Of a DNA stretch of 64,000 bases, positions 9,670 to 55,507 are shown one piece after another. The notes under the pieces were generated by a model. The model saw only the letters and a list, made by a program, of their open reading frames with translations, had not been told where the DNA came from and ran no database searches. The first letter of the stretch is position 1. Every line of letters starts with the position of its first letter. Where the stretch lies: assembly GCA_963711375.1 (NCBI GenBank), contig CAVQDV010000002.1, forward strand, positions 12,649-76,648, given 5' to 3'. The DNA is from an uncultured Gammaproteobacteria bacterium (GTDB lineage: Bacteria; Pseudomonadota; Gammaproteobacteria; Coxiellales; Coxiellaceae). A program made the translations under genes and the position numbers.

Positions 9670-9865
9670 GGTTTTCCTTTTTACTTCAATATTCCATACG
9701 AGATTTTCATAATTTTGCCCTACTTTACTCGAAATTTTTGTATTCGTCCAACATCGATTAGAGTAGCATTCCGTGTAAGGCCAAAGCGCGCCAAGCAGAC
9801 GACGCGAGGCTTTAACGTGGTGACCCGAAGCTTTGCTCAAAAAGAAAACAATTGATGGAGAAATT

Positions 9866-37858: not shown

Positions 37859-39620
37859 GTTGGAGCCATTTAGAAATGTCCTCCTCTTAGCCACTTAGAA
37901 ATGTCCTCTTGAGGCAGGTCATCGCCCATTCTACGACACTTAGTTTTTGGGAGCAAAACTACGTGTTTCCAATGCAAATGAGCCTCAAAATCCTGTTTTG
38001 GGCTCTGGACCTTCTTCCTCAAAAAAATATTTATACTGTTGCTGTATTTAAATGGGCCGTCTGTGGGCGAAGGGAGGGCAAGCTGGTGATAACCTCGTGG
38101 AGAATGTATTCCATTATCCATCAGGTTATCACTGGCTTGTCCTCGCTTCGTCCACAGACACCTTTTTCTTACGAAATTGAATACTTCAATAAGAGCCTGG
38201 CTTGAGGTAAATTTTTAGATGCTGGGATTTTATTTACCACCAGACTTCGCCACGGATGCGATGCACTGGGTTTTCTGGATTTATTCGCATTTATATTTTT
38301 GTCGAAAATCGCATTCAGCTCTTTTTCATCAACCACTTTTGGCCTTTTTTCGTTTCTACTAAATTCTTTGTATTCCAATTTTTCATTTTTATAGAGAATA
38401 TCAATTTTGCTATCGAGTGCTTTGCAAACCGTAATAGTCGCTTGCTGAAGTCTTCGTCCTTTTCCTTGGTTTTGAATTTGATAAATTTTTCCATTGAAAG
38501 AAATTTCTAAATTCTTCGTGACTTTCCTTTCTTCTTGCTCGCTCAGAATATAATTTAATTCTTCTGGAGTTCGGGTATTTGGACTAAATAAGCTTTGCTT
38601 TTCTCTCGCTGCTTGTGCAAAGCGTTGATTGTGCTTTTTCCTGTATTTTTCTTCTAGAAATTTATTTGCAGCATCAATGTCACTGATATTTTCTAAACGT
38701 AATTCCTTCGTCAGTCGATCCTGTAGGGTTTTATTGGCACGTTCTACTCGACCTTTTGCTTGTGGCGAGCGCGCGTTAATAAGATCTATCCTCAATTCTT
38801 CACAGGCGCGTCCAAACTGCGTTTGCGCTTCTGGATCATCGCATTGATTCACTCGAAATATTCCGTGGCGATCACTATAAAAACCCAACGGGATTCCGTA
38901 CTTTTCAATGGTATGCAAAAGACCCCGAAAATACGCGAAAGTCGTCTCCGTTTTTTCAAAGTGCAAATACAAAATTTCACTCGTGGCATCATCGATAAAA
39001 ACAATTAAGCAGCATTTTGGTCCTCGACTTTCGAACCAATCGTGCGGCGAGCCATCAATTTGAATTAATTCGCCAAAGCAAGCTCGTCGTTCTCTTTGTT
39101 GATGGATAGTTTTTATTTTTTGTCGGGCAGGCTTCCAATAACCTTCTTCAATTAGCAAAAGACGCAGAGTTTCTTTGCCAATTTTAATTTGATTTTTTTC
39201 CAATAATATCTCAGCCATGAAGGTTGGGCCAAACCCCAAATAAGCACTGGATGCTAGCCCAATTATTTGCGATCGCGTGGACTCCGGTATTCTGCGATTA
39301 CTCATCTTGCCTCGACCTTTATGGAGTAAACCTTTGCTTTCTTCCTGCCTATAGGCTTTGCATAGCCGCCTTATTTGGCGCGTACTCAAAGCCAATTTCT
39401 TCGCCGCTTGCGTTTGTTTTAGCGACCCTTCGCAGGTACCTTGAATCACCCTATCTCGTTCAATATCTTTTTGACTCATTAGCAATCGTCCCCCTGAGTT
39501 CATGTTCGGCCTCCTACCGTTTGCTACCTGAGAACTACGATAACATCGCTTCCACAAGTGGCTTTTTAAGGGGACATTTCTAAATGGCTGGAAGAGGACA
39601 TTTCTACTTGGCCGCTACAC
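37859..39620 (-). mobile_element. IS1202-group (ISNCY) insertion sequence, 1762 bp
   Basis: About 50-bp imperfect terminal IRs, each holding two TAGAAATGTCCYC repeats (37870-37910 and 39570-39610). A single rve-type transposase. 16-bp direct duplication of the flank. Confidence 0.7.
38169..39479 (-). CDS. rve-type DDE transposase (IS1202/ISNCY-like)
   Basis: N-terminal HTH (LKQTQAAKKLALSTRQIRRLCKAY). DDE contexts IQIDGSPHDW, FYSDRHGIF, GRVERANKTLQDRL. I prefer the ATG at 39479 (MSQKDIERD). Confidence 0.8.
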   Translation of the reverse strand: MSQKDIERDRVIQGTCEGSLKQTQAAKKLALSTRQIRRLCKAYRQEESKGLLHKGRGKMSNRRIPESTRSQIIGLASSAYLGFGPTFMAEILLEKNQIKIGKETLRLLLIEEGYWKPARQKIKTIHQQRERRACFGELIQIDGSPHDWFESRGPKCCLIVFIDDATSEILYLHFEKTETTFAYFRGLLHTIEKYGIPLGFYSDRHGIFRVNQCDDPEAQTQFGRACEELRIDLINARSPQAKGRVERANKTLQDRLTKELRLENISDIDAANKFLEEKYRKKHNQRFAQAAREKQSLFSPNTRTPEELNYILSEQEERKVTKNLEISFNGKIYQIQNQGKGRRLQQATITVCKALDSKIDILYKNEKLEYKEFSRNEKRPKVVDEKELNAIFDKNINANKSRKPSASHPWRSLVVNKIPASKNLPQARLLLKYSIS

Positions 39621-39664: not shown

Positions 39665-39671
39665 AGCTTAA

Positions 39672-42528
<2,857 letters not shown>

Positions 42529-42532
<4 letters not shown>

Positions 42533-42732
42533 TTTCAATAGAATTGAGCAATAAAATACTTGAAATCTCAAATCATTCCTCGCTATTGGAGCTTCTCGAG
42601 CAACAGGGATTGAGTCACAACGCTTATGCCGTGGCACTCAATGGGCGATTTATTCCGCTAGGGGATCATGGGAATACGATTTTGCAGCAGCATGATGTTA
42701 TTGAGATTGTTGTTCCGATGCAGGGGGGATAA
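42529..42732 (+). CDS. thiS: Sulfur-carrier protein ThiS
   Basis: 67 aa, ends in ...PMQGG. GTG start overlapping the thiO stop. Confidence 0.8.
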
Positions 42733-42735
42733 ACG

Positions 42736-43524
42736 ATGTGGACACTAGCAGACAAAAATATTAACAGTCGTTTCTTATTGGGGACTGCACAATATCCCTC
42801 CTTAGACATCCTGCGAAATTCTATTATTCACGCAGAAACGGATGTTATTACGCTTTCCCTGAAACGACAATCTCACCATGAAAAACGTGAAAATGTTTTT
42901 TGGAATGCTATAAAAAAATTAAACTGTCATCTGCTTCCGAACACGGCTGGTTGCCGCACAGCAGAGGAGGCCATCACCACCGCAGAAATGGCGCGTGAAA
43001 TATTTCAAACCACTTGGATTAAATTAGAAGTCATTGGCGATGAATATAACCTTCAACCGGATCCTATTGAATTAATAAAAGCCTCGAAAATTCTGTGTGA
43101 AAAAGGCTTTACTGTCTTTCCTTATTGCACCGACGATTTAGTCCTCTGCCAACGTTTACGGAATGTGGGCTGTAAAATATTAATGCCTTGGGCCTCACCG
43201 ATTGGATCCGGTATGGGCCCTATTAATTTGCATGCATTAGAAACACTGCGCCATCGTTTACCAGAAATCGTACTGATAATTGATGCCGGAATTGGAAAAC
43301 CCTCTCATGCCACTCAAGTGATGGAATTGGGTTATGACGCTGTTTTACTGAACAGCGCTGTTTCGCTGGCCCGTGATCCGGTTCAGATGGCCGGAGCCTT
43401 TCGTGATGGTATTCGTGCTGGCCGTGCCGCTTTTGAAGCCGGTATTATCCCGGAAAGAAATATGGCTCATCCTAGCACCACCTTATTAGACACTCCTTTT
43501 TGGCATCAAGAGAAAATAGTATGA
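42736..43524 (+). CDS. thiG: Thiazole synthase ThiG
   Basis: 262 aa. SRFLLGTAQYPS N-terminus and TIM-barrel pattern (KLEVIGD, LMPWASPIGSG, IIDAGIG). Confidence 0.9.
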   Translation: MWTLADKNINSRFLLGTAQYPSLDILRNSIIHAETDVITLSLKRQSHHEKRENVFWNAIKKLNCHLLPNTAGCRTAEEAITTAEMAREIFQTTWIKLEVIGDEYNLQPDPIELIKASKILCEKGFTVFPYCTDDLVLCQRLRNVGCKILMPWASPIGSGMGPINLHALETLRHRLPEIVLIIDAGIGKPSHATQVMELGYDAVLLNSAVSLARDPVQMAGAFRDGIRAGRAAFEAGIIPERNMAHPSTTLLDTPFWHQEKIV

Positions 43525-45020
43525 CAGCAAAAATCGCATGGACCATCGCAGGGTCAGATTCAGGAGGCTCAGCTGGCATCCAAAATGATGGGCTCACGTT
43601 TCATCATCTCGGCGTTCAGACCTGTTCGGTAATCAGTGCCATTACATCACAAAACATCGATGAAATTCGGAGTATTTTTTATTTGAATGCCGAAAGCATT
43701 GCCTCACAAATTCATGCACTCGCACAACAAATGCCACCAAATGCAATTAAAATTGGGATGCTGGGAAATGCTCCGGCTATCAATATTCTCAATAATTTTT
43801 TGGAATCGTATACGGGTTACATCGTGTTAGATCCTTTGCTAGCGTCTTCCTCCGGGTGTAACTTATTTGAAGGGGATCTCGAGGATTATTTATCTGAGCT
43901 CAGGAAATTATTTAAATTCGTGGATGTGTTGACTCCCAATCTTAGCGAAGCTGAGAAAATATCTGGGCATTTTATTCAGTCGCATGACGATATGAAAAAA
44001 GCGGCAGAAATTATTTTATCGCTGGGTGCTAAAAGTATTTTGATAAAAGGAGGGCATTTTCAAGGCGATAAATTCAGCCAAGATTATTGGACAAATGGTT
44101 CAGATCACTTTTGGCTTTCGAAAGAACGTCTGAAAAAAAAGAATTGTCGAGGAACGGGCTGCGCACTTTCTTCTGCCATTGCGGCGAGCTTAGCGTTGGA
44201 ATATGGTATCAAGGATTCCATAGTAATCGCGAAAATGTATGTTAACCGAGGAATTCGTTTGTCGCATTCTGGAAGTACATTCTCCGCACAGTTTTTTCAT
44301 GGTGGATGGCCAGAGGAACAACTAGATCTTCCCTACTTATCCCCGCATCCAATTAAAAATTCACCTCATCAATTTAATTCACTGACTCATAAATCCATCG
44401 GGCTTTATCCCATTGTGGACAGCCTTGAATGGCTAAAGAAATTATTAGCGCTTGGTGTAAAAACGTTGCAATTACGAGTAAAAAATAAATTAAGCAACGC
44501 GTTGGAACAGGACATTATTGAAAGTATTCGACTCGCGAAAGAATATCAGGCCATATTATTTATTAATGATTATTGGGAATTAGCCCTCAAACATGGTGCC
44601 TATGGCGTTCATTTAGGGCAGGGTGATTTGGTTCATGCAGATCTCAATAAAATTCGAGAAGCCGGTTTACGTTTAGGACTGAGTACGCACTGCTATTATG
44701 AAGTGGCCCGAGCCCATGCCTTAAATCCCTCCTATATAGCCTGCGGCCCTATTTTTTTCACCACAAGCAAAAAAATGCCATTTTTGCCACAAGGTGTTGA
44801 AAAACTCAGACGATGGCGACGAACATTAAATTACCCACTCGTGGCCATTGGTGGCATTAATTCGGAAAATTTGGATGAAATTCTCGAGACAAACGTCGAT
44901 GGTATCGCAATAATGTCGGCCATTACTCAACATAAACAAGCAAATGAGATTACAAAAAAATTCTTAAAACGGGTAAATGAGTCAATCTGTAAACAAAACG
45001 ATGAGCGCTTCATTGAATAA
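43521..45020 (+). CDS. thiDE: Bifunctional ThiD (HMP/HMP-P kinase) - ThiE (thiamine-phosphate synthase) fusion
   Basis: N-terminal IAGSDSGGSAGIQND... (ThiD). C-terminal LYPIVDS...LQLRVK...GPIFFTTSK (ThiE). ATGA overlap with thiG. Confidence 0.85.
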   Translation: MTAKIAWTIAGSDSGGSAGIQNDGLTFHHLGVQTCSVISAITSQNIDEIRSIFYLNAESIASQIHALAQQMPPNAIKIGMLGNAPAINILNNFLESYTGYIVLDPLLASSSGCNLFEGDLEDYLSELRKLFKFVDVLTPNLSEAEKISGHFIQSHDDMKKAAEIILSLGAKSILIKGGHFQGDKFSQDYWTNGSDHFWLSKERLKKKNCRGTGCALSSAIAASLALEYGIKDSIVIAKMYVNRGIRLSHSGSTFSAQFFHGGWPEEQLDLPYLSPHPIKNSPHQFNSLTHKSIGLYPIVDSLEWLKKLLALGVKTLQLRVKNKLSNALEQDIIESIRLAKEYQAILFINDYWELALKHGAYGVHLGQGDLVHADLNKIREAGLRLGLSTHCYYEVARAHALNPSYIACGPIFFTTSKKMPFLPQGVEKLRRWRRTLNYPLVAIGGINSENLDEILETNVDGIAIMSAITQHKQANEITKKFLKRVNESICKQNDERFIE

Positions 45021-45285
45021 CGCTTATTCTGAAAACCTATTCGCTTGGTAAAAACCATTTCTTTATTTTTCTCGATGGAAAATATTTCAAATATCATATT
45101 TTTATCGGGATTGTCTTGGAAGCAGACTTTTTTTGCAACTGGGCATGGCGCTTTTGGAAATCATCCTGAAATTGCTACCTACGATTGGCGTAAAATTTGC
45201 TGGAAGGACTGGAATACTGCAAAAATTAATGGTAATTTGTGACTACTCTGTAAGTAATATGCACAACAATATAAGGATTCAAATC

Positions 45286-46146
45286 ATGTTAAATCCTAGA
45301 GCCATTCGTTCGATTATGTTTACCCCCGCTTTACGACTGGATCGTTTTCACCAGATTTTTGGATCTTTTTCTGATTTATGTCTATTGGATTGTGAAGACT
45401 CTGTAAGTGTGGTTGATAAAGAAGAGGCCAGAAAAAATCTTTATGTATATTTAGAACAATCAAAAGTAGTCAATAAACCCATGGGAGTGCGAGTTAATGG
45501 GCTGAATACGGCTGATGGTAAGGCCGATATATTGGCTCTAAAAAATTGCAGAAACCTACCAGACTATATTGTTATTCCTAAAGTTGAGACCGGACGAGAT
45601 ATTATTTCTGTTGTGGATGAGTTGGATTGTCGTGCAAGAGGTACTCAAATTATCGCGTTAATAGAAAATATTAAAGGGGTACAAAATGTGGAAAAAATTG
45701 CAGCCGCTTCTCCTGATTTAGCGGCACTCATGTTTGGTGCTGCTGATTACACTCGAAGTATTGAAGGAGAGATTTGCTGGGACACGCTTCTGTTTCCTAG
45801 AACGATGATTATTCATGCCGCTTGCAACAATAATATTGGTGCGATCGACACGCCGTATTTTGATATGCAAGACCTCGACGGTCTCAGAAATGATTGTAAG
45901 CGTGTCAAGAACTTGGGATTTACAGGACGTTGTGTAATACATCCCTCTCAAGTTTCCGTTATTAATGAAATGTTTTCATATTCATCCTTGGATCTTGAAC
46001 AAGCAAAACGTATCGTAACGGCTGCGCGCTTAAATAAAGGCAATATTTGTCGCGTTGATGGAAAAATGGTAGGCACTGCTATTATTCAAAAAGCGTTTGA
46101 TGTTTTGAAAAGTCATGAATTGGCTGAGCTCAATCACAATAATTAA
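45286..46146 (+). CDS. CitE/HpcH-family CoA-ester lyase (citryl/malyl-CoA lyase-like), copy 1
   Basis: RSIMFTPA..., LLDCEDSV, IPKVETG, ALIENIKG, FGAADY and GRCVIHPSQV fit the CitE pattern. ATG at 45286 with an AAGGA RBS. Confidence 0.7.
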   Translation: MLNPRAIRSIMFTPALRLDRFHQIFGSFSDLCLLDCEDSVSVVDKEEARKNLYVYLEQSKVVNKPMGVRVNGLNTADGKADILALKNCRNLPDYIVIPKVETGRDIISVVDELDCRARGTQIIALIENIKGVQNVEKIAAASPDLAALMFGAADYTRSIEGEICWDTLLFPRTMIIHAACNNNIGAIDTPYFDMQDLDGLRNDCKRVKNLGFTGRCVIHPSQVSVINEMFSYSSLDLEQAKRIVTAARLNKGNICRVDGKMVGTAIIQKAFDVLKSHELAELNHNN

Positions 46147-46156
46147 GGACGATGAT

Positions 46157-47164
46157 ATGGGACAAATCACACAATCAATCATATACCAATCGCCTGGAGA
46201 AAACGGACAATTGCGTTCAATTCAGCATGAACTAGGCGATCTTCAAGATTCAGAGTTAATGATAAAAGTTTCTGCTGCTGGACTTAATAGAGCAGATCTT
46301 TTACAGAGACAGGGAATTTATAAAGTCCCTGCTGGAGAAACCGAAGTACCTGGAGTTGAGATTGTTGGTGTAGTGGTGGCAAGAGGCCTAGCCGCTAAAA
46401 ATATAAATCTGGGTAGTCGAGTCTGCGGTGTAGTCAGTGGCGGCGGATTTTCAGAATATTGCGCATTAGATAGTAGAATGGCGATCAATGTTCCTAAAAT
46501 ATGGTCTGATATTGAGGGTGCCGCTTTTCCAGAAGCCGCATTAACTGCGAATCAGGCATTAATTCATTTAGGAGAAGTAAAGTCTGGAGACCAAGTGGTG
46601 ATTCATGCTGCTTCAAGTGGCGTGGGAACGATGCTGGTAACGATGGGAAAAGCGCTCGGTGCGAAGATTATTTGTACAACAACGTCTCAAAACAAAGTAC
46701 AGCCACTCTATGACATAGGCGCAGATATTGTGATAGCTGGGAAAGGAGTGGATTTTGCCGAATCTGTTTTAGAAATAACAGAAGGGAGAGGTGCTGATGT
46801 TGTGATAGATTTTTTAGCAGGCCATTATTTTAATAACAATGTACTGGCGCTTAAGGCCGGTGGTAGATTGGTTATGGCGGGTATTCTTGATGATCATCAA
46901 AGTCACGTAAATTGGATTCCTCTAATTAATAAACGAATCAGTGTTCATCCCCTTTCTCTCAGGATGAAACCCTTATCTGAAAAACGATTGGTGACCTCTA
47001 ATTTTTTAAATCGATGGTGGGATGGCTGTGCTTATGGAAGACTTCGTCCGATTATTCACGCTCAGTTTTCTGTATCTGATTTAGATGTTGCTCTGAAACA
47101 AATGTTAAAAAATCAACACGTAGGTAAAATAGTGATTACTATGCAAAAAGAATGTAATTTCTAA
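46157..47164 (+). CDS. Quinone-oxidoreductase-like MDR (zinc-independent alcohol dehydrogenase superfamily)
   Basis: AAGLNRADLLQRQGIY, PGVEIVG, IHAASSGVGT. ATG at 46157 with an AAGGA RBS. Confidence 0.75.
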   Translation: MGQITQSIIYQSPGENGQLRSIQHELGDLQDSELMIKVSAAGLNRADLLQRQGIYKVPAGETEVPGVEIVGVVVARGLAAKNINLGSRVCGVVSGGGFSEYCALDSRMAINVPKIWSDIEGAAFPEAALTANQALIHLGEVKSGDQVVIHAASSGVGTMLVTMGKALGAKIICTTTSQNKVQPLYDIGADIVIAGKGVDFAESVLEITEGRGADVVIDFLAGHYFNNNVLALKAGGRLVMAGILDDHQSHVNWIPLINKRISVHPLSLRMKPLSEKRLVTSNFLNRWWDGCAYGRLRPIIHAQFSVSDLDVALKQMLKNQHVGKIVITMQKECNF

Positions 47165-47195
47165 ATATGAATTTTTAAAAGATAGGCCGTGTTTC

Positions 47196-48209
47196 ATGCA
47201 TCAATACAAACAATTTTTACTGGATAAATTACTTCTAAAAAGTAATAGCGCGATCAATATTATTCCCGTTTGTGACCATTATGCTGGCACTGAGCGCTCA
47301 ATACAAAAATCATTATTATTTCAGAATAAATTCGGGTCAGCTCTAGATCTTACTCTCGATTTTGAAGATGGGAGTGCTATGGGTGATGAAGAATATCAGC
47401 GTACGTTGATAAATGACACTTTAAACAACCAACATAATATTCATGGGCGAGTTGGCGTCCGTATTCATAGTGTAGAAACACTTCATTGGCAGCTAGATGT
47501 GGACGCCGTAATAACTAAAAAAGGAAATTTACCAGCCTTTATTAATATACCCAAGGTACAAAGAATTGAAGAAATTAAAAAGGTCGATTTTTATATTAAG
47601 CAAAGATTATCAACTCATGGTCGAAAGTCAAATATCCCGATTCATATCATGTTGGAGGATGCACCGGCTATCTCTCGAGCTCATGATTTAGTAAATTGTG
47701 GCATGGTGGAATGCTGCAGTTTTGGTTTGTTAGATTTTGTGAGTTCCTTCGGAGGAGCAATTCCTGCCAGTGCCATGCACAGCCCAGCTCAATTTGAACA
47801 TCCACTGGTAAGGGAAGCCAAAATTAAACTTGCTTTTGCTTGTCATGCAGCTGGTGTGATACCCTCTCATTCGATAACAGTCGATATCGGGGATCCAGAG
47901 CAGGCCTATCAGGATGCGCGCCGAGCTCGAGAAGAATTCGGGTATTTGAGAATGTGGAGTATTCACCCCTCTCAAATTGAGCCAATTATTAGTGCTTTTC
48001 AATATAGCCAAGAGGAACTTGAAGAAGCGATAGTAATTTTGGAGCAGGCTTTAAAAATAAATCTAGCGCCGATTCTGTTTAAAGGAAAAATGCATGATAG
48101 AGCATCATATCGTTTCTTTTGGATAAAAATTCGAAGAGCTTTATTAAATGAAGATGCATTTTCAAAGGAACTAGAACGGTTATTAGAAAAATTATTAATA
48201 TTAAATTAA
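47196..48209 (+). CDS. CitE/HpcH-family lyase-like protein, divergent copy 2
   Basis: LTLDFEDGSA, NIPKVQ, IMLEDAPA, LLDFVSS, MWSIHPSQIEPI. Confidence 0.55.
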   Translation: MHQYKQFLLDKLLLKSNSAINIIPVCDHYAGTERSIQKSLLFQNKFGSALDLTLDFEDGSAMGDEEYQRTLINDTLNNQHNIHGRVGVRIHSVETLHWQLDVDAVITKKGNLPAFINIPKVQRIEEIKKVDFYIKQRLSTHGRKSNIPIHIMLEDAPAISRAHDLVNCGMVECCSFGLLDFVSSFGGAIPASAMHSPAQFEHPLVREAKIKLAFACHAAGVIPSHSITVDIGDPEQAYQDARRAREEFGYLRMWSIHPSQIEPIISAFQYSQEELEEAIVILEQALKINLAPILFKGKMHDRASYRFFWIKIRRALLNEDAFSKELERLLEKLLILN

Positions 48210-48231
48210 TTATTGAAACACCGAATATGAA

Positions 48232-49851
48232 ATGAGTCAGATTATGAAAATGGAAAATATGACCTATATAACTACCCCAATTTATTATGTAAATGATGAT
48301 CCCCATATTGGACATATATATACTACAATCAGTGCAGATGTGTTAGCTCGGTTTTTTCGATTAATTGGCCAGACTACTTATCTATTAACGGGTACAGATG
48401 AACATGCTCTAAAAGTGGTTGAGGCCGCTAAAGCAAATGGTATGACGCCAACGGATTGGGCCCAAAGTAAGGCACTTGTTTTTGCAGAGGCGTTTAATCA
48501 GTATGGTATTCAATACACCGATTTTATCAGAACGAGTGACGAAAGGCATATTCAACAAGTTCAAAAAAGAGTGAAAGATTTTTTGGATTCCGGAGATATT
48601 TATTTTGGTAATTATGAGGGTTGGTATGATAAAGGCCAAGAAGAATATATCTCTGACCAGCGGGCAGAAGCTAATCATTATTTGTCGCCGATCAATAAAA
48701 AACCTTTGGTCCGACGCCAAGAATCATGCTTATATTTTAGGTTGTCAAAATATTCTGAGGATGTGAAAAATCTTATTTTAAATGACACTTTGAAAATTAG
48801 ACCAGTGTCACGCCGCCAGGAAATCTTAGCCAGGATTCGGGATGGTATTAATGACATTCCGTGTTCTAGACCTCGTGTTGAAAATTGGGGCGTTGCTGTT
48901 CCAGGCTACGAAGATCAAACGGTTTATGTTTGGATTGATGCCCTCCTTAATTATCTCACGGCAGTAGATTCAGATCTTAACAGAGAGTTTTGGCCACCAA
49001 AAATTCAAATTATAGGAAAAGACATTCTTTGGTTTCATGCACTTATTTGGCCAGCTATGTTGTTGGCTTTGCAAAAAATTCCCCATAAAAAAAATGAATG
49101 GATTGAGTTGCCTGAAATTATCAGAGCTCATGGATTTTGGATATGTGATGGGGAAAAAATGTCTAAAAGTCTTGGTAATTTTATTTCTCTATCCGTTTTA
49201 AACACTTATTCTGAAATCTATGGCCGAGATTCAATAAGATTTTTTCTGATGTTTGCAGGTCCAAATGAGGGCAGTGATGCTGATTTTAGCGAAGAACGAT
49301 TACATGAAACATATACTTCTTTACTGGCAAATACCCTTGGAAATTCTTGTTCACGCGTACTTGCCATGATTTCAAAATATTGCGAAGCCAAAATCCCGAA
49401 TGCTTTGGTGAAAAGTGATTTTCCTGTTGAGCAGGTCATGGAAGCGGTAAAAAGCGCTTGTACTTCCGCAACAGAAGGTGAGTTTCCGACATTAATAACG
49501 GAGGCTTTAAAAATTGTTAGATTAACGGATGCATTTATTCAAAACCGTCAACCCTTTCAGTTGATCAAAGATCCTTCTAAAGTTCTTGAAGTTCAAGCTA
49601 TTTTGCATGATTGTCTCGAAGCTCTTCGCTTAGCTTCAGTGCTTTTGTGGCCAATAATGCCTGAGCGTATGCAGAATTTTTGGAATGCTATTTCGTTTGA
49701 TAAAAAAATGGAAAGTTTAATGAATGGTGGCTTAGTGGAGTCTAAGGATATTTTGCAATGGGGACAGTTAGCGGTTGGGACTTCAGTAGCTAAATTAAAT
49801 GCCCTATTTCCTCGTATCGAATTGCCCAACGTGCTTAATGTTCAACGATAA
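48232..49851 (+). CDS. metG: Methionyl-tRNA synthetase, short knuckle-less form without a C-terminal appended domain
   Basis: TTPIYYVNDDPHIGHIYT (HIGH), GEKMSKSLGNF (KMSKS), anticodon-domain LANTLGNSCSRV. No CxxC pairs in the connective peptide. 539 aa. Confidence 0.85.
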   Translation: MSQIMKMENMTYITTPIYYVNDDPHIGHIYTTISADVLARFFRLIGQTTYLLTGTDEHALKVVEAAKANGMTPTDWAQSKALVFAEAFNQYGIQYTDFIRTSDERHIQQVQKRVKDFLDSGDIYFGNYEGWYDKGQEEYISDQRAEANHYLSPINKKPLVRRQESCLYFRLSKYSEDVKNLILNDTLKIRPVSRRQEILARIRDGINDIPCSRPRVENWGVAVPGYEDQTVYVWIDALLNYLTAVDSDLNREFWPPKIQIIGKDILWFHALIWPAMLLALQKIPHKKNEWIELPEIIRAHGFWICDGEKMSKSLGNFISLSVLNTYSEIYGRDSIRFFLMFAGPNEGSDADFSEERLHETYTSLLANTLGNSCSRVLAMISKYCEAKIPNALVKSDFPVEQVMEAVKSACTSATEGEFPTLITEALKIVRLTDAFIQNRQPFQLIKDPSKVLEVQAILHDCLEALRLASVLLWPIMPERMQNFWNAISFDKKMESLMNGGLVESKDILQWGQLAVGTSVAKLNALFPRIELPNVLNVQR

Positions 49852-49867
49852 TAAACTGGGGTACAGA

Positions 49868-50629
49868 ATGCGATTAAAAGGCAGTAACGTTTTTATAACC
49901 GGCGGTAGCAGCGGAATCGGCTTTGCTCTAGTAAAAGGTTTTCTTGAAGAAGGCGCGAATGTTGCGTTTACCTATCGAAAAGAAGATTCGCTTAAACGAT
50001 CTCATGTACAAGAGCTTTTAAATCAATACCCAGAGGTTTATCCTATACCCTCCGATTTTTCAAATTCTATAGATGCTGAAAACCTTCTCAATAATATGGC
50101 TGAGAAATTTGGGACTCCTATTAATGTGTTAATTAATAATGCCGCTGCATTTTCTCGAGCCACATTCCTTGAGACAACGAGAAACAGTTTAACAGAGATA
50201 CTCAATGTTAATCTCGTTACTCCTTTTGTTCTAATTTCAGCTTTCGCAAAAATGTTAATTGCCTCTAACCAACCGGGTAGTATTATCAATATATCTTCAC
50301 TTAGTGCGACGATGGCGAGAAGCAAAATGGCCGCTTATCAAGCCTCAAAAGCCGGGCTAGAAATGTTATCAACAAGTGCGGCCTATGAACTTGCACCCTA
50401 CAATATTCGTTCAAACATAATTGCCCCAGGTCTAACTGAAACTCCCGCTAATGAAGAGCAAAGAAAAACGAAAGCAGAAATCTGGGCAGAACGATCGGCT
50501 TTAATACCTTTAGGAAGAGCTGGGGTACCGCAGGATTTTATTGGTGCTGCAGTTTACCTTGCTTCTTTGGAAGCTCGTTGGGTTACTGGGGCAAAGATTA
50601 TTATTGACGGTGGGATGAGTTCCTTTTAA
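49868..50629 (+). CDS. Short-chain dehydrogenase/reductase (SDR)
   Basis: ITGGSSGIGFA, NNAA, YQASKAG. Confidence 0.85.
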   Translation: MRLKGSNVFITGGSSGIGFALVKGFLEEGANVAFTYRKEDSLKRSHVQELLNQYPEVYPIPSDFSNSIDAENLLNNMAEKFGTPINVLINNAAAFSRATFLETTRNSLTEILNVNLVTPFVLISAFAKMLIASNQPGSIINISSLSATMARSKMAAYQASKAGLEMLSTSAAYELAPYNIRSNIIAPGLTETPANEEQRKTKAEIWAERSALIPLGRAGVPQDFIGAAVYLASLEARWVTGAKIIIDGGMSSF

Positions 50630-50642
50630 TTCTTCAAAAAAA

Positions 50643-51851
50643 ATGGCGACAAAGTCTATGAATCAATATCAGAACTTGAGCAGAATGATCACATTGAGCG
50701 AAGATTCATGGACTACCGCGAGCGAAAATAATTTGGTTGATTTAGCGGTGCGGCATCTGGAGGCGCCTTTTATGCAAGCTAATGGTCAAAATTTCGTTAA
50801 TATGTGTTCCTGTTCTTATTTGGGGTGGGATCGACATCCTGCAATTCTAGAAGGGGCCATTAATGCCATTCGACAATCTGGGACCTTACATCTTACTACA
50901 GCACGTTGCCGGTTATTTTTGGATTTATTAGGGGAATTTGAGGAGAAATTAAGCGAACATTTTCAGGCAACTGCCGTTGCTTATAATTCTTGCGCGGCAG
51001 CAAGTTCAGCGGCATTGCCGTTACTGGCTTCAGGTGTTTTAACAAAAAACATCAAACCAGTCATGGCTTTTGATAAATTCGCCCATTTTTCGCTTGCTCA
51101 CATGAAGCCACTTTGCGCTGATGAAACACAGATTATCACGATCGACAATAATGATATGCAAACGCTTGAAATGCTTTGTCGGAAACATGCTCAAGTGGCC
51201 TATGTTTCGGATGCAACTTACAGTATTAAAGGATTTTCAAATCTCAAAGAATTAAAATCATTACAAGCGCAATATGGGCTTTTTCTTTATTTGGATGATT
51301 CTCATGGTTTAACAATAAACGGTGAGCTGGGACAGGGAGTTGCAATGGAAATGCTAGGGCCACCGAATGAATTGACATTGATTGTAGCATCTTTGGCAAA
51401 AGCATTTGGTTCTTCGGGCGGGGCACTTTTCTCGGGCAACAAACAGATTAAAAAATTATTGGTTCGATATGGTAATGCCTGGTCTCAATATCTTAATTCA
51501 GCAAGTATTGGCGGTGGAATTTCTTCTTTGGATTTACATAAATCTCAAGAACTTTCTATAGCGCAAAGTTCATGGCGTGACAATTTGGCTTTATTTGACA
51601 GTTGCTTTAACACAGTCAATCGTTGTGAACTGAGTCCTATTCGTGTGATTAACATTAAAACCCCATCAGCGGCTGTTAAAGCAGCCAAGCGCTTAATGGA
51701 TGCCGGTTATTATACTTCTGCCGTATTTTTTCCGGTAGTGCCCAAAAATTCAGCGGGTCTTAGGATTATGCCACGAGCCGATATTAGAAAAGAAACGATG
51801 CAAGAGTTTTGCACTTTAGCACAGGAAATATGTGCAGATGATCTCTTATGA
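50643..51851 (+). CDS. PLP-dependent alpha-oxoamine synthase family enzyme (AONS/SPT/CqsA-LqsA-like)
   Basis: NMCSCSYLGWDRHPAILEGA, LDDSHGLTINGELGQG and SLAKAFGSSGG (Schiff-base Lys context). Confidence 0.75.
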   Translation: MATKSMNQYQNLSRMITLSEDSWTTASENNLVDLAVRHLEAPFMQANGQNFVNMCSCSYLGWDRHPAILEGAINAIRQSGTLHLTTARCRLFLDLLGEFEEKLSEHFQATAVAYNSCAAASSAALPLLASGVLTKNIKPVMAFDKFAHFSLAHMKPLCADETQIITIDNNDMQTLEMLCRKHAQVAYVSDATYSIKGFSNLKELKSLQAQYGLFLYLDDSHGLTINGELGQGVAMEMLGPPNELTLIVASLAKAFGSSGGALFSGNKQIKKLLVRYGNAWSQYLNSASIGGGISSLDLHKSQELSIAQSSWRDNLALFDSCFNTVNRCELSPIRVINIKTPSAAVKAAKRLMDAGYYTSAVFFPVVPKNSAGLRIMPRADIRKETMQEFCTLAQEICADDLL

Positions 51852-52687
51852 AAGAAAAAATTATTTTAGAAAAATTCTCCAACAATCGGCACAAACTTTT
51901 TAATAATATTTTGGAACCATCCTCTCATGCATTGCTACGCCATGTTGAAATGAAAGGAATTCACGTGGTTGATCTGGGCTGTGGAGAAGGGGCATTGACC
52001 TTGTTCATGTGTCAATTAGTTGGGGCAGATGGCCGTGTGACGGCGGTCGATAAAGACGAAGTAAAGTTGAAGCGACTATATGAAAAAGCTAAAAAGTCAG
52101 GAATCAATAACCTTGTGATCTTACATGCTGATGCGACTGTAGCATTACAAAAAATTGATAACGTCGATATGGTTTACTCTCGTTTTTTCTTGATGCATAT
52201 TTCTGATCCTGTCGCGATGCTGTCTCAGATATTCCAGTGTATAAAACGAGATGCTTGTATCGTTTTAGAAGAGCCTGTACTGAGCGCAAGCCTTGATTTT
52301 CCAAAGACAAATTTTTGGGTAAAAGCAATTTTTGCCTATGAAAAACTTTGTGAGCAAACAGGCATAAATCCGAATTATGGTCTTCATCTGATACGAGATC
52401 TGCAATCAGTAGAATTTAAGATACATTTTGCGCAACAAATACAGCCAATCATTAGCGCTGAATTAGCGCAGGAATATAGTAAATATGCCATTTATTCTCA
52501 TCAAAAAGATTACTTAATTTCCGGAGTACTAAACGAAACTGAGTATAATTCTTTACTCAAAACAATTGAACAGCATCCCATCAAGAAAATTGACTATTGT
52601 GGTTTTCATGGAGTAATGCAAGTGGTATGTGGTAAAATTCGTGCGCTTGATGATTTTTTTACACATTCACAACTTCAAGATTTATAA
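51848..52687 (+). CDS. Class I SAM-dependent methyltransferase
   Basis: VVDLGCGEGALTL motif I. 4-nt overlap with the preceding gene. Confidence 0.75.
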   Translation: MKEKIILEKFSNNRHKLFNNILEPSSHALLRHVEMKGIHVVDLGCGEGALTLFMCQLVGADGRVTAVDKDEVKLKRLYEKAKKSGINNLVILHADATVALQKIDNVDMVYSRFFLMHISDPVAMLSQIFQCIKRDACIVLEEPVLSASLDFPKTNFWVKAIFAYEKLCEQTGINPNYGLHLIRDLQSVEFKIHFAQQIQPIISAELAQEYSKYAIYSHQKDYLISGVLNETEYNSLLKTIEQHPIKKIDYCGFHGVMQVVCGKIRALDDFFTHSQLQDL

Positions 52688-52710
52688 AAATAAAATGGGT
52701 AGGGGGAAAA

Positions 52711-54183
52711 TTGAATCGTCAGCCAATACATTCCGATAAAGCAGTGTTGATTATTGGTTCAGGGCCTTGTGGAATAGCGGTTGCAGACACGTTGCGATCC
52801 CAGGGGGTTAGCAGTATTGTCTTTGAAGCGGGTCCACTTCCTATTATTCATGATGGTATAAGTTATCGTAATATGGAAGAGTATCGTCAACAATTAAAAG
52901 CCTACTTATTCGTCAATGACGATGAGTGGAGATATGAAACTAATTCAAAAGATTTTGACTGGATTAGGGTCAGAGCTGCTGGGGGAAGAACACTTCGCTG
53001 GAATGGTTGGCTAGCTCACCCTAGGAAAGAGAATTTTATTTCAGCTGAAAGCCAGGAATGGCAGTGGCCATTTACGGAATTGGAACTTGAAAAACTGTTA
53101 ACACGATCCAAAAAATGGTTGAATGGTCAGGCAAGTTTTTTGGCATCTAGATATGTTAATTTAAAAAATCAACTGGGTTGTGTTGTCTTACCAAAAGCAG
53201 CTGCAATGGCTGAAAATTTAATTCGACCATTTTGTTCGCTGGACCGTTTATCTTGGTCTGCCTATAATTCGCAAACTTCAGCACAAATTCGTCTAGAGGA
53301 TCGTGTTATTGTCACGAGTATTCTGTGTGGTCGTGATGGCGTTGAGGGTGTTGAATATATTGATTGCCGAACGCGAGTAGCGCATCGCATTAAAGCTCGA
53401 GTGGTTATTCTTAGTGCATCTACAATTGAAACTACACGTATTTTATTATGTTCAGAATTAAATCGCAGTGAGGCTTATACCAAAATTGGTAAAGGATATA
53501 CAGATCATATTGCAGCCAGCTATCTGGCTATTTTACCTGATAAATTTAAAGGTGATAAAATCGCCAGCCCCTTAGCGCGTGGTGCTACAATACCCAATCC
53601 ACTTAATTCTCATCGAAGTCTTTTGCAACGGGGAGGGTTTAGCATTGAATTACATGGTCCTAATCCAGCCGAAATATATGAACCAGAGGTACTTGCCGTA
53701 GCAGGTCTTGATGCAGTTAAAGACGCAGATGTTTCTTGCATTAGCGTGAACGCCATTGGTGAGCTCTGTTCTTCGCCGAGACGTTATGTTGGCATTTCTG
53801 ATCAAGTGGATAGCCTTGGTCGTAAAATACCTAAAATTTCTCTTGAATGGGATGAAGAAGTAAAAGCGCTTGTCTTTTCGATGGAAGCTGAAGCCAAACG
53901 GGTAGCAACTGAATTAGCTGGAACGCATGGGCATGCTGTAAAGGTCCGAGAAACGTTAACGCTTGGCGGAACTGGGACCTCTCATGAAGCCAGCACCTGT
54001 CAGATTGGAATCGATGCAAATCATTCTGTCGTCGATCGAGATGGACAGGTTCATGGCATAAAAGGTTTATTTATAGCTGATGCTTCGCTGTTGCCTTCAG
54101 GGTTGGATTGTCACCCAACACTTACCATAGTGAGTTTAGCATTAAATACCGCAGATGGTGTAATTCGCTCCCTAATGATGTAG
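52711..54183 (+). CDS. GMC-family FAD-dependent oxidoreductase
   Basis: VLIIGSGPCGIA FAD fold. C-terminal HEASTCQIG...VVDRDGQVHGIKGLFIADASLLPS. TTG start as in the track. Confidence 0.75.
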   Translation: MNRQPIHSDKAVLIIGSGPCGIAVADTLRSQGVSSIVFEAGPLPIIHDGISYRNMEEYRQQLKAYLFVNDDEWRYETNSKDFDWIRVRAAGGRTLRWNGWLAHPRKENFISAESQEWQWPFTELELEKLLTRSKKWLNGQASFLASRYVNLKNQLGCVVLPKAAAMAENLIRPFCSLDRLSWSAYNSQTSAQIRLEDRVIVTSILCGRDGVEGVEYIDCRTRVAHRIKARVVILSASTIETTRILLCSELNRSEAYTKIGKGYTDHIAASYLAILPDKFKGDKIASPLARGATIPNPLNSHRSLLQRGGFSIELHGPNPAEIYEPEVLAVAGLDAVKDADVSCISVNAIGELCSSPRRYVGISDQVDSLGRKIPKISLEWDEEVKALVFSMEAEAKRVATELAGTHGHAVKVRETLTLGGTGTSHEASTCQIGIDANHSVVDRDGQVHGIKGLFIADASLLPSGLDCHPTLTIVSLALNTADGVIRSLMM

Positions 54184-54217
54184 AGATAAATATTAATTAA
54201 TAAAAGGAAGAATAAAA

Positions 54218-55507
54218 ATGAATATCTATTCGATTCAACAAATCGTAGCCCTAGCAAAATTTACCTCTCCTATTTACAAGGAATTATATGCCGATATTGA
54301 ACCTACCACACCGTTTGATGAGCTTCCAATTCTTACCAATGAACGATTAATGGATATTGTTCATGCTAAGCGTCCTGACTTCGTTTTTGCGGATGGAAAT
54401 ACCCATGGGTTGATTTTTGAATCCTCTGCATCAACCGGTAAGCCCAAAGTGACTCTTTGGGGGAGAGATGAGTGGGAAACTTCAATGCGAATATTGGCTA
54501 CTTATCATTGGCGAAATGGCTTGTTGAAAGACAATGATCGAGTTTCTAATTTGTGTGCCAGTCCCTATCTTTCTTATCGGATTGTGCACAGTGTGATTGA
54601 AAATTATCCTGGCAAATGCTCTGAAATACCTGTGGGTTGTGAAATGGAATTTTCGGAATTAAACGATATCGTTATGAAGTATGAGTCTAATGTTTTAGCG
54701 GGAATAAATTCAACATTTTTGGGTCTTGCAATGGACCTCTTAGATCGGGGAATTCAAAATAAACGGGTCGAGAGAATTCTGGCCGGTGGGGAACTGCTCT
54801 ATGGTAAACAACGCGAAGTAATACAACTGGCCTTCCCAAATGTCACCATGGTTTCTTTTTTATTTGGCACAACGGAAAGTGGTATTATCGGATTCAGTCA
54901 TTTGGATGATCAACTTGATGTTTTTAGACCATTTCCCGGAGTCAGTATCGTGGAGATTATCGATGAAAAAACCAATAAAAAAATTACAACCCCAGGTCAA
55001 GTAGGTAAATGCGTGGTTACTTCATTACTACGGGTAGCCGCTCCGGCTATCCGTATTGATACTGGTGATTATGCTGAGTGGGTGGATAACATGGATAGTA
55101 ATTCACCCTGTTTTAGAGTGCTTGGAAGAAAATTTCCTTTTAATCATAGCATCAATAACGCCCAGTTTAGTGAGACAGACATTTGGGCTTTAATTAAATA
55201 TGTAGAGGATCATATCCCTATTACAAAATTACAGGTTGAACTGCATCACGATTCGATAGAAGTGGTATACGCCTTACTCGATGGGAATAAACATGATCCT
55301 AAAATTGTTGAGGCAGCCATAAACCAAGGAATTTATAATAGGGTGCCTATTTTACATGACTCCGCCATTACACTAAAAATGCGTTTAGAAAATTTCTCTC
55401 ATTTTATTGGAGCTACTCGAAAGAAAGGCCGGCTTATCAAAGATTGCCGCACACCCAGCGGTTCGGCGTTTATCAATGCCGTATCACAGGATGGTGCAAC
55501 TCAATAA
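54218..55507 (+). CDS. Adenylate-forming ligase of the PaaK / coenzyme F390 synthetase-like family
   Basis: ESSASTGKPKVTLW (AMP-binding core), about 430 aa, with the PaaK-like N-terminal ELPILTNERL. Confidence 0.65.
   Translation: MNIYSIQQIVALAKFTSPIYKELYADIEPTTPFDELPILTNERLMDIVHAKRPDFVFADGNTHGLIFESSASTGKPKVTLWGRDEWETSMRILATYHWRNGLLKDNDRVSNLCASPYLSYRIVHSVIENYPGKCSEIPVGCEMEFSELNDIVMKYESNVLAGINSTFLGLAMDLLDRGIQNKRVERILAGGELLYGKQREVIQLAFPNVTMVSFLFGTTESGIIGFSHLDDQLDVFRPFPGVSIVEIIDEKTNKKITTPGQVGKCVVTSLLRVAAPAIRIDTGDYAEWVDNMDSNSPCFRVLGRKFPFNHSINNAQFSETDIWALIKYVEDHIPITKLQVELHHDSIEVVYALLDGNKHDPKIVEAAINQGIYNRVPILHDSAITLKMRLENFSHFIGATRKKGRLIKDCRTPSGSAFINAVSQDGATQ

Follow-up and report, generated by a model that had tools for sequence, protein, structure and literature searches.

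Nine co-directional genes in the window analysed here, a stretch of 64,000 nt from contig CAVQDV010000002.1 of an uncultured gammaproteobacterium, constitute what we infer to be a single operon for a specialised metabolite. They encode, in order, a coenzyme A (CoA)-ester aldolase/lyase of the HpcH/CitE family (CitE1), a medium-chain dehydrogenase/reductase (MDR), a second CitE-like protein (CitE2), a methionyl-tRNA synthetase (MetRS), a short-chain dehydrogenase/reductase (SDR), an alpha-oxoamine synthase (AOS), an S-adenosylmethionine (SAM)-dependent methyltransferase (MT), a GMC-family oxidoreductase and an adenylate-forming ligase. The predicted product is a tailored ketomethylene- or hydroxyethylene-type methionine mimic, with the MetRS serving as a self-resistance copy; to this statement as a whole we assign a probability of about 0.5, the biosynthetic core being held with higher confidence and MetRS as the target with lower. 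The chemical steps, substrates and resistance role are all predictions from homology and comparison of loci.

Gene arrangement and conservation

A near-identical gene set including MetRS has been found in at least six other loci, from Pseudomonas shirazica, P. brassicae, a metagenome-assembled genome (MAG) of Janthinobacterium and three metagenome lineages. Window-type loci with MetRS number seven, display four gene arrangements and vary in GC content from 39 to 64%. Since genomes unrelated to one another have this set, the arrangement is more than chance. Loci L089 and L090 have the same order as the window, CitE1-MDR-CitE2-MetRS-SDR-AOS-MT-GMC-ligase, after which come a gene for an Htd2-like hydratase and, in convergent orientation, an MFS gene, with protein identities of 56–74% to the window (AOS 73%, MetRS 71%, ligase 74%). 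L087 contains the same genes, with MetRS convergent at the far end, while in P. shirazica (L002–L004) and P. brassicae (L006) the set is rearranged and MetRS is divergent at the edge. In the Janthinobacterium lividum MAG the set is seen in two pieces, Htd2-CitE1-MDR-MetRS-SDR at a contig end (L174) and SDR-AOS-MT-GMC-ligase (L005), and in L175 the order is Htd2-like-CitE1-MDR-MetRS-SDR-AOS-MT-GMC-ligase. Hence the conserved set is comprised of Htd2, CitE1, MDR, MetRS, SDR, AOS, MT, GMC and ligase, with CitE2, which is present in L089, L087, L002 and L006 and absent from L174/L005 and L175, as an optional member of the cluster family.

Pairwise identities of MetRS, SDR and MDR follow those of AOS in six loci (Spearman coefficients 0.77, 0.69 and 0.83, respectively, for 15 non-independent pairs and thus descriptive only). 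As the MetRS identities track AOS in the same way as those of SDR and MDR, MetRS has diverged together with the biosynthetic genes, and the embedded synthetase pointed out in the preliminary description of this DNA is a real, stably linked member in the seven window-type loci. Exporter genes flank some relatives, an MFS gene at L089 and a PTR2 gene at L085, and genes for LuxR and LuxI lie upstream in L087; such flanking LuxIR and exporter genes are typical of secondary metabolism.

The LuxR-type and LuxI-type genes of L087 (positions 1-1450) are situated directly upstream of a complete MetRS-containing cluster, which suggests quorum-sensing control in this lineage. The same locus contains a 2H-phosphoesterase-like gene, an additional AMP-binding enzyme, TauD and an M20 peptidase.

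The layout in the window itself (Table 1) agrees exactly with the preliminary description, which gave nine co-directional genes with gaps of 10–34 nt and one 4-nt overlap: ORF calls and inspection of starts and stops place all nine genes on the plus strand at 45286-55507, with junctions of 10, 31, 22, 16, 13, –4, 23 and 34 nt from 5' to 3'. All nine ORFs are intact, with zero frameshifts and zero premature stops; for AOS an alternative start exists at 50658. All nine domain assignments made earlier are likewise borne out by Pfam and NCBIfam scans. GC content is 39.4% in the cluster and 39.3% in the rest of the window. We presume that the upstream intergenic region contains the operon promoter; a scan for consensus promoters and terminators yielded fewer matches than in shuffled sequence and was uninformative.

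Table 1. The nine-gene cluster and other features of the 64-kb window
Feature	Coordinates	Strand	Remarks
parA	258-1472
parB-like gene	1462-2481
RepM-like replication initiator	2535-3836
ISNCY-family transposase	38169-39557	-	immediately upstream of thi operon
Thiamine pyrophosphate (TPP) riboswitch	39669-39758	+	66 bits; before thi operon
thiC-thiO-thiS-thiG-thiDE operon	39743-45020		complete; upstream of cluster
Upstream intergenic region	45021-45285	+	265 nt, thiDE to CitE1; sole long non-coding gap flanking the nine genes; presumed operon promoter region
CitE1, HpcH/CitE-family acyl-CoA aldolase/lyase, KtmA-like	45286-46146	+	Pfam, NCBIfam
MDR, PIG3/acrylyl-CoA-reductase-like, KtmF-like	46157-47164	+	TIGR02824
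CitE2, second divergent HpcH/CitE-family protein	47196-48209	+	HpcH_HpaI
MetRS, short, 539 aa	48232-49851	+	TIGR00398; HIGH and KMSKS
SDR ketoreductase, FabG-like	49868-50629	+	adh_short_C2
AOS, alpha-oxoamine synthase, KtmB/Alb29 family	50643-51851	+	NF005697
MT, class I SAM-dependent methyltransferase	51848-52687	+	Methyltransf_31/25/11
GMC-family FAD oxidoreductase	52711-54183	+	TTG start; GMC_oxred_C
PaaK/F390-type adenylate-forming ligase	54218-55507	+	DVU_1553-family and PaaK matches
Convergent hydrophobic multi-pass protein, 504 aa	55484-56998	-	overlaps ligase stop by 24 nt

The preliminary description had allowed for the genes not being conserved together or matching a known primary-metabolic operon; the set is co-conserved in other genomes, and no match to a primary-metabolic operon has been found. 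Literature searches returned no description of a MetRS-containing cluster family. The large polytopic membrane protein noted earlier at the 3' end lies outside the conserved cluster: it was considered as a cluster member and rejected, since related clusters never have it as a neighbour. No Pfam family matches it; a word-indexed search of 5.8 billion proteins returned only the protein itself, and a full HMMER search revealed a small family with 35 representatives among 1.84 billion, of which 11 are below 1e-30.

A ketomemicin-type core

CitE1, AOS and MDR are homologues of KtmA, KtmB and KtmF from the ketomemicin pathway, as indicated by the shared NF005697 model, the below-cut-off RipC_Ccl matches and the comparison with Streptomyces sp. 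I05A-00742 (locus L038). The preliminary description had recognised no characterised pathway; the core of the gene set does have a precedent. The genome paper of the latter strain reports a ketomemicin-like cluster by antiSMASH (PMC7317104); its gene order, HpcH, AOS, MaoC, PreATP-grasp/PGM1-type ligase, a 387-aa protein and MDR, is the ktmA-F order and agrees with the published ktm gene functions (PMC11943689).

AOS matches NF005697 (PRK07505) with 450 bits, compared to the cut-off of 342; in L038 the protein at the KtmB position reaches 515 bits and is 42% identical to the window AOS. All of 37 homologues keep the PLP (pyridoxal phosphate) lysine K253 together with H148, D218 and H221, and the closest solved structure is PDB 8xha (Alb29; E 9e-80). 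CitE1 matches Pfam HpcH_HpaI with 119 bits and NCBIfam RipC_Ccl with 247 bits, under the cut-off of 375; its best solved structure is the citramalyl-CoA lyase RipC (PDB 3qll, E 1e-58). The KtmA-position aldolase of L038, 36% identical to CitE1, is similarly below the RipC_Ccl cut-off, with 216 bits. MDR passes TIGR02824 (PIG3-type, quinone-reductase-like) with 303 bits and has weaker matches to acryloyl-CoA reductase, YhdH, crotonyl-CoA reductase and enoylreductase domains of polyketide synthases. It is only 25% identical to the KtmF-position protein of L038, with identical Pfam architecture, 33–44% identical to AOS-adjacent MDRs in myxobacterial loci and 46–64% to its homologues in related MetRS-containing loci.

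A scan with the AOS alignment, with one genome per species, produced 80 loci, in which neighbours within 8 kb of AOS were identified by tblastn with window and reference proteins as queries. A CitE1-like gene was found in 60 of these loci, a gene of the MaoC/mesaconyl-CoA-hydratase type also in 60, both in 59, and an MDR in 39. The combination of AOS with a CitE-like gene and a hydratase is represented in Pseudomonas, myxobacteria, Streptomyces, Mycobacterium and Acidobacteriota. AOS homologues at 43–73% identity are widespread, and a plasmid collection contained AOS relatives at approximately 42% identity (Ralstonia, Rhizobium, Pantoea), without MetRS and with uninformative annotation.

Given these relationships, the families named in the preliminary description stand, and the functions are recast by analogy: CitE1 most likely works as an aldolase building alkyl-malyl-CoA and not as a lyase, and MDR is most likely an enoyl-CoA reductase and not a quinone reductase.

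Proposed pathway and tailoring genes

Kawata et al. (2017) are reported to have found that KtmA, KtmC and KtmF convert a malonyl- or acetyl-CoA unit and phenylpyruvate to a benzylsuccinyl-type CoA ester, which KtmB condenses with an amino acid. By analogy, CitE1 would form 2-alkylmalyl-CoA from a 2-oxoacid and acetyl- or malonyl-CoA; proximity of CitE1 to RipC (PDB 3qll) makes a small 2-oxoacid, for example pyruvate, a conceivable, if speculative, aldol partner. A hotdog hydratase, Htd2-like in close relatives, MaoC/KtmC-like in distant ones and absent from the window, would then dehydrate this intermediate, and MDR would reduce the double bond to give 2-alkylsuccinyl-CoA. AOS would join the latter to an amino acid with loss of CO2 and CoA, producing a ketomethylene pseudodipeptide in the form of a 5-amino-4-oxo acid; PLP-dependent Claisen condensation to an alpha-aminoketone, proposed earlier as the central step, is supported. 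SDR, MT, GMC and the PaaK-like ligase would tailor this scaffold, with SDR reducing the aminoketone carbonyl, and likely modifications being keto-reduction to a hydroxyethylene or amino-alcohol, methylation, oxidation, and activation or amidation of the carboxylate. The product would be a methionine-derived aminoketone or amino-alcohol inhibiting MetRS, and the cluster MetRS would most likely provide the producer with a second version of this target that the compound does not inhibit.

The tailoring genes are arranged around AOS in a conserved manner. SDR (adh_short_C2, 187 bits) is directly upstream of AOS in all close relatives, as well as in L007, L008 and L085; MT follows AOS and GMC follows MT in all close relatives. 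The nearest solved relatives of MT are small-molecule N-methyltransferases, the matches spanning the SAM-binding region only. GMC has GMC_oxred_C (62 bits) and an N-terminal FAD-binding motif, its nearest structures are sugar/alcohol oxidases or dehydrogenases, and its tailoring reaction is taken to be alcohol oxidation. The ligase matches the NCBIfam DVU_1553-family CoA ligase (E 1.8e-12) and PaaK (1.6e-8), with E 1e-4 at best for PaaK entries of PDB; its ANL motifs, including SSASTGKPK, are invariant in the alignment with relatives. CitE2 matches HpcH_HpaI with 47 bits, and its nearest structures are the structural-genomics "citrate lyases" 3r4i (E 1e-82) and 3qqw (E 1e-73), with weaker similarity to malyl-CoA lyase.

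The SDR-AOS-MT-GMC block is also found alone, without CitE, MDR, MetRS and ligase (L085, 736-7501; L086, 391-8743), where it is flanked by a WelO5-like Fe/2-oxoglutarate (2OG) enzyme, a PLP enzyme of Cys/Met metabolism, RidA and a PTR2 peptide transporter.

The cluster MetRS

The window MetRS passes TIGR00398 with 387 bits (cut-off 336) and is devoid of the C-terminal tRNA-binding domain. It aligns at full length, over the catalytic and anticodon-binding domains, with MetRS from A. aeolicus and T. thermophilus, at approximately 45% similarity. The HIGH and KMSKS motifs and the anticodon residues N371 and R375 are invariant in five cluster MetRS copies, the Met-pocket motifs are conserved in the window enzyme, and judging from these features it is probably competent in tRNA charging.

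KDILWFH, F/Y at the position of E. coli W461 and the absence of Zn-knuckle cysteines were considered as marks of resistance or of loss of tRNA binding and rejected, since the 120 nearest homologues have them too. The latter include housekeeping-looking enzymes of 655–688 aa with PF01588 from Planctomycetota, Deltaproteobacteria and Acidobacteriota; since the unusual features are shared with such homologues, the window MetRS appears to be an ordinary intact member of its subfamily and not a degenerate one.

In a neighbour-joining tree the cluster-linked MetRS copies form one clade, with P0143 and P0146, which have unrelated gene contexts, outside it. P0132 (L171, 10001-11560), 63% identical to the window MetRS, is nested in this clade and has no cluster nearby; it comes from a 34%-GC organism, and its neighbours, ccs/resB, smpB, fur, recN and NAD kinase, are housekeeping-like. 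It represents an orphan immunity gene or else the regular MetRS of this organism. As a negative control, 80 MetRS loci from JGI metagenome contigs were considered, and cluster genes were observed beside none of them; all matches listed there are at most 44% identical, close relatives being absent.

Two further MetRS types are found in more distant clusters. In the gammaproteobacterial MAG locus L007, genes for MaoC, an amino-acid dehydrogenase, an FMN dehydrogenase, a glyoxalase-fold protein, MetRS, SDR, AOS and CitE are separated by 10–37 nt. The core of its MetRS is of the E. coli type (652 bits to 1qqt), with the Zn knuckle and W461 kept and the C-terminal domain absent. In Rhizobacter sp. 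(L178) the cluster is comprised of AOS, MetRS, ligase, CitE, a 2OG oxygenase, SDR, MaoC, OCD and a LanB-like protein; here MetRS is Thermus-like (KDILRPH, APW), 36% identical to the window enzyme and 23% to that of L007. P. savastanoi pv. glycinea (L179) has the L178 architecture without MetRS, which shows that MetRS is dispensable for the chemistry in this variant. Thus, three unrelated lineages of short, intact MetRS have been captured independently by related SDR-AOS-CitE-hydratase clusters. Three independent captures tie the pathway product to MetRS, and such convergent recruitment favours self-resistance over a biosynthetic role.

The LanB-like proteins (L178, 18505-21224; L179, 11649-14843), full-length at approximately 1070 aa and with Lant_dehydr_N and Lant_dehydr_C domains, are encoded inside these AOS-ligase-CitE-SDR-MaoC-OCD clusters, with no obvious precursor peptide. 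They may perform a tRNA-dependent modification of a small pseudopeptide.

Several features agree with the cluster MetRS being an extra copy. Pseudomonas presumably has another metG, which is of E. coli type and encodes about 680 aa, and metG of Janthinobacterium is presumably E. coli-type as well. Occurrence of the cluster MetRS in these genera and the plasmid-like location in the window argue for an extra copy beside the housekeeping enzyme, with P0132 urging caution. A spare insensitive MetRS is the simplest explanation, given that the gene is dispensable in one variant, that no aminoacyl-tRNA-dependent transferase is seen in clusters of the window and L007 types, that the gene is positioned at the cluster edge in Pseudomonas and L087, and that the window replicon is plasmid-like.

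Is the window copy complete?

All close relatives of the cluster (L089/L090, L087, L002, L006, L174 and L175) have an Htd2-like gene, while tblastn with Htd2 and KtmC homologues revealed neither an Htd2 nor a MaoC homologue in the whole 64-kb window. In L089 Htd2 starts 23 nt after the ligase stop. The homology of the window ligase to its relatives ends at ...RKKGRLIKDCR, where the relatives stop, and is followed by a unique 18-aa C-terminal tail overlapping the convergent membrane-protein gene. As this tail is unique beyond the stop of the relatives, the hydratase was apparently removed by a rearrangement with the breakpoint just after the ligase, and the window operon may need a hydratase encoded in trans or be inactive.

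The window copy could therefore be incomplete and possibly decaying, in which case the family product would not be made or would be replaced by a hydroxylated shunt product. This is possible but, in our opinion, doubtful. The location on a replicon with transposases is in line with it, as are the loss of a gene kept in every close relative and the run of the ligase into an unrelated convergent gene. On the contrary, all nine ORFs are intact, the GC content of the cluster equals that of its surroundings, the hydratase could lie elsewhere on a contig of at least 107 kb, and a housekeeping enoyl-CoA hydratase might stand in for it.

Alternative roles of MetRS and of the operon

The preliminary description had offered both self-resistance and a use of methionine in biosynthesis; comparison of sequences and gene contexts favours the former, and the latter is retained as a rival. 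MetRS would then supply Met-tRNA(Met) to a transferase, or Met-AMP acylating the amine or hydroxyl of the pseudodipeptide, and would replace KtmD, yielding a methionyl-pseudotripeptide. We regard this as unlikely, although the function of amide formation is vacant in window-type clusters, which have no KtmD-like ATP-grasp ligase, and the MetRS gene is within the operon in the window, L089, L174, L175, L007 and L178. The LanB-like protein of L178 and L179 belongs to an aminoacyl-tRNA-using family, and tRNA-independent MetRS-like ligases, PyrN, Spb40 and Tri28, are known from natural-product pathways (PMC8664883). However, no tRNA-dependent transferase, cupin or N-hydroxylase is recognisable in window-type or L007-type clusters, and the PaaK-like ligase could perform amide formation. 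The enzyme itself has the full anticodon-binding domain and canonical motifs, like its apparent housekeeping relatives. Recruitment of three unrelated lineages is easy for resistance and harder for newly evolved catalysis, L179 manages without MetRS, and in Pseudomonas and L087 the gene is at the edge on the opposite strand, a common place for resistance genes. A more specific version, in which a canonical MetRS is a part of the assembly line, aminoacylating the pseudodipeptide from Met-tRNA(Met) or Met-AMP, and MetRS lineages are repeatedly recruited for non-ribosomal pseudopeptide synthesis, seems still less plausible.

A catabolic or primary-metabolic operon, for degradation of C5-dicarboxylates of the itaconate/citramalate type or for methionine metabolism, with MetRS as a housekeeping gene, is improbable. 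The best named family of CitE1 is indeed the itaconate-degradation lyase RipC/Ccl, a thiamine biosynthesis operon precedes the cluster, and the context of P0132 is housekeeping-like. Still, the RipC_Ccl match is under the cut-off, a CoA-transferase is lacking, and such catabolic routes have no use for AOS, a methyltransferase, a GMC oxidase or an adenylating ligase. Moreover, occurrence is scattered, with two of the many Pseudomonas species, a single Janthinobacterium MAG and carriage on a plasmid, exporters and LuxIR flank relatives, and Pseudomonas presumably has its own E. coli-type metG. Least probable is the alpha-hydroxyketone signal from a CqsA/LqsA-type autoinducer synthase, a product type proposed in the preliminary description: a reductase acting after an AOS might in principle yield a hydroxyketone, and LqsA signalling is known in Legionellales-type organisms, of which the host appears to be one, but AOS scores just 71 bits in NF005526 (cut-off 428) against 450 in NF005697, no LqsR/LqsS-type sensor genes are adjacent, and the conserved partners CitE, hydratase and MDR are foreign to Cqs/Lqs systems.

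The reading as a methionine mimic with a self-resistance MetRS has a number of points against it as well. The hydratase of the scheme is missing from the window, and the scheme leaves the roles of CitE2 and the ligase unaccounted for. Membership in NF005697 by itself fixes neither the substrates nor a ketomethylene dipeptide, since Alb29 from the albogrisin pathway (PDB 8XHA), the closest solved relative of AOS, uses L-glutamate and small acyl-CoAs (PMC11906848). As for MetRS, comparison with the 120 nearest homologues revealed no cluster-specific substitutions explaining resistance, literature searches found no natural-product MetRS inhibitor as a precedent, and P0132 demonstrates that MetRS of the window type can exist outside the cluster. 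Finally, the LanB-like family uses aminoacyl-tRNA, which brings tRNA-dependent chemistry into at least one relative (L178/L179).

Genomic setting

The window opens with parA, a parB-like gene and a gene for a RepM-like replication initiator. This par/rep module has approximately 71% DNA identity to QpH1-type plasmids of Coxiella burnetii, and Legionella plasmids also match. The window probably belongs to a plasmid that is at least 107 kb long, or to an integrated plasmid, of a Legionellales-type bacterium, and in such a plasmid-like location its MetRS is unlikely to be the only MetRS of the host. Carriage on a plasmid of the Coxiella/Legionella type suggests that such chemistry moves among bacteria tied to intracellular life.

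Upstream of the cluster are a transposase gene, a TPP riboswitch and the complete thiamine operon (Table 1); tRNA genes were not found in the window. Proteins identical to those of the window are encoded on a 107-kb NCBI contig and on a 36-kb ENA contig. In the latter, a second public assembly of this locus (L001, contig_99624), thiC, MetRS and the ligase are split by frameshifts that are not seen in the window; these are probably assembly errors and not signs of pseudogenes. Elsewhere in the window, an esterase fused to a YbgC-type hotdog thioesterase is encoded at 8452-9840 on the minus strand, while the gene at 15264-17153 on the plus strand specifies 629 aa and its product resembles arylamine N-acetyltransferase in the N-terminal region; as accessory genes of this replicon the two are unusual.

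Comparison with known systems

The closest known system is the ketomemicin cluster ktmA-F of actinomycetes, with which the window shares homologues of KtmA, KtmB and KtmF at 25–42% identity only. The implied logic is alike: an alkylsuccinyl-CoA and an amino acid would give a ketomethylene pseudodipeptide. In close relatives of the window cluster an Htd2-like protein takes the place of the MaoC protein KtmC, and the window has neither. The PGM1-type ATP-grasp ligase KtmD and the amidinotransferase KtmE are absent from the window family: tblastn with the L038 proteins found their homologues in just four Streptomyces loci, and none of the nine window proteins has a Pfam match to ATP-grasp. On the other hand, the window cluster adds SDR, a SAM methyltransferase, a GMC oxidase, a PaaK-like ligase, CitE2 and MetRS, and is proteobacterial and plasmid-borne rather than actinomycete. 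With KtmC, KtmD and KtmE absent, it is not a member of the ktm clusters, although its core would work in a ktm- or arphamenine-like way.

Ketomemicins and arphamenines were stated in 2025 to be the only natural ketomethylene pseudopeptides (PMC11943689). The latter are Gram-negative ketomethylene pseudodipeptides, for which a PLP-dependent C-acyltransferase is thought to be used (PMC9239090, PMC11943689). Arphamenines A and B of Chromobacterium violaceum mimic Arg-Phe/Tyr and inhibit aminopeptidase B, so that their target is a peptidase and not an aminoacyl-tRNA synthetase (aaRS), and no association with MetRS is reported for them. The AOS family has members in Chromobacterium (P0102); a defined arphamenine gene cluster for comparison was not found. 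Alb29, from the same enzyme family as the window AOS, demonstrates that this family is not restricted to ketomethylene dipeptides.

In the RipC/Ccl system of itaconate degradation, which provides the best, below-cut-off family for CitE1, the partners form the Ict-Ich-Ccl operon; the window has no CoA-transferase such as Ict and no hydratase, and its context is biosynthetic. PyrN, Spb40 and Tri28 are similar in being MetRS homologues in natural-product clusters, but the window enzyme is a full MetRS passing the metG model. Moreover, the N-N systems with cupin/MetRS-like enzymes are tRNA-free and need a lysine or ornithine N-hydroxylase and a zinc cupin (PMC8664883), and neither cupin nor N-hydroxylase domains were found in the nine proteins or the flanks by Pfam and NCBIfam.

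The KtmA/B/C(/F) core is widespread, as 59 of the 80 species-representative AOS loci have both a CitE-like gene and a hydratase, and its chemistry is known in principle. What is new is a proteobacterial sub-family that has acquired its own MetRS, along with tailoring genes for redox enzymes, a methyltransferase and a ligase. The three captured MetRS lineages are a strong genomic pointer to a MetRS-directed compound, and MetRS is a validated antibacterial and antiparasitic target; if the favoured reading is correct, the family encodes the first natural-product MetRS inhibitors. The window copy may be defective and the product is still a prediction from sequence, but the cluster seems a good lead for genome mining, and complete clusters in cultivable Pseudomonas strains, such as those of P. 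shirazica in CP075569.1 at about 3.76–3.78 Mb and of P. brassicae MAFF 212427, make the prediction directly testable.

Self-resistance copies of aaRS are known for IleRS (MupM, mupirocin), ThrRS (BorO, borrelidin), TrpRS (indolmycin) and SerRS (albomycin). The window family resembles these systems in having an intact aaRS that is foreign to the host in Pseudomonas and Janthinobacterium, is stably linked to the cluster and is often situated at its edge on its own strand. It differs from them in chemistry, which is neither polyketide nor nucleoside and would, as proposed here, proceed through a tailored ketomethylene scaffold.

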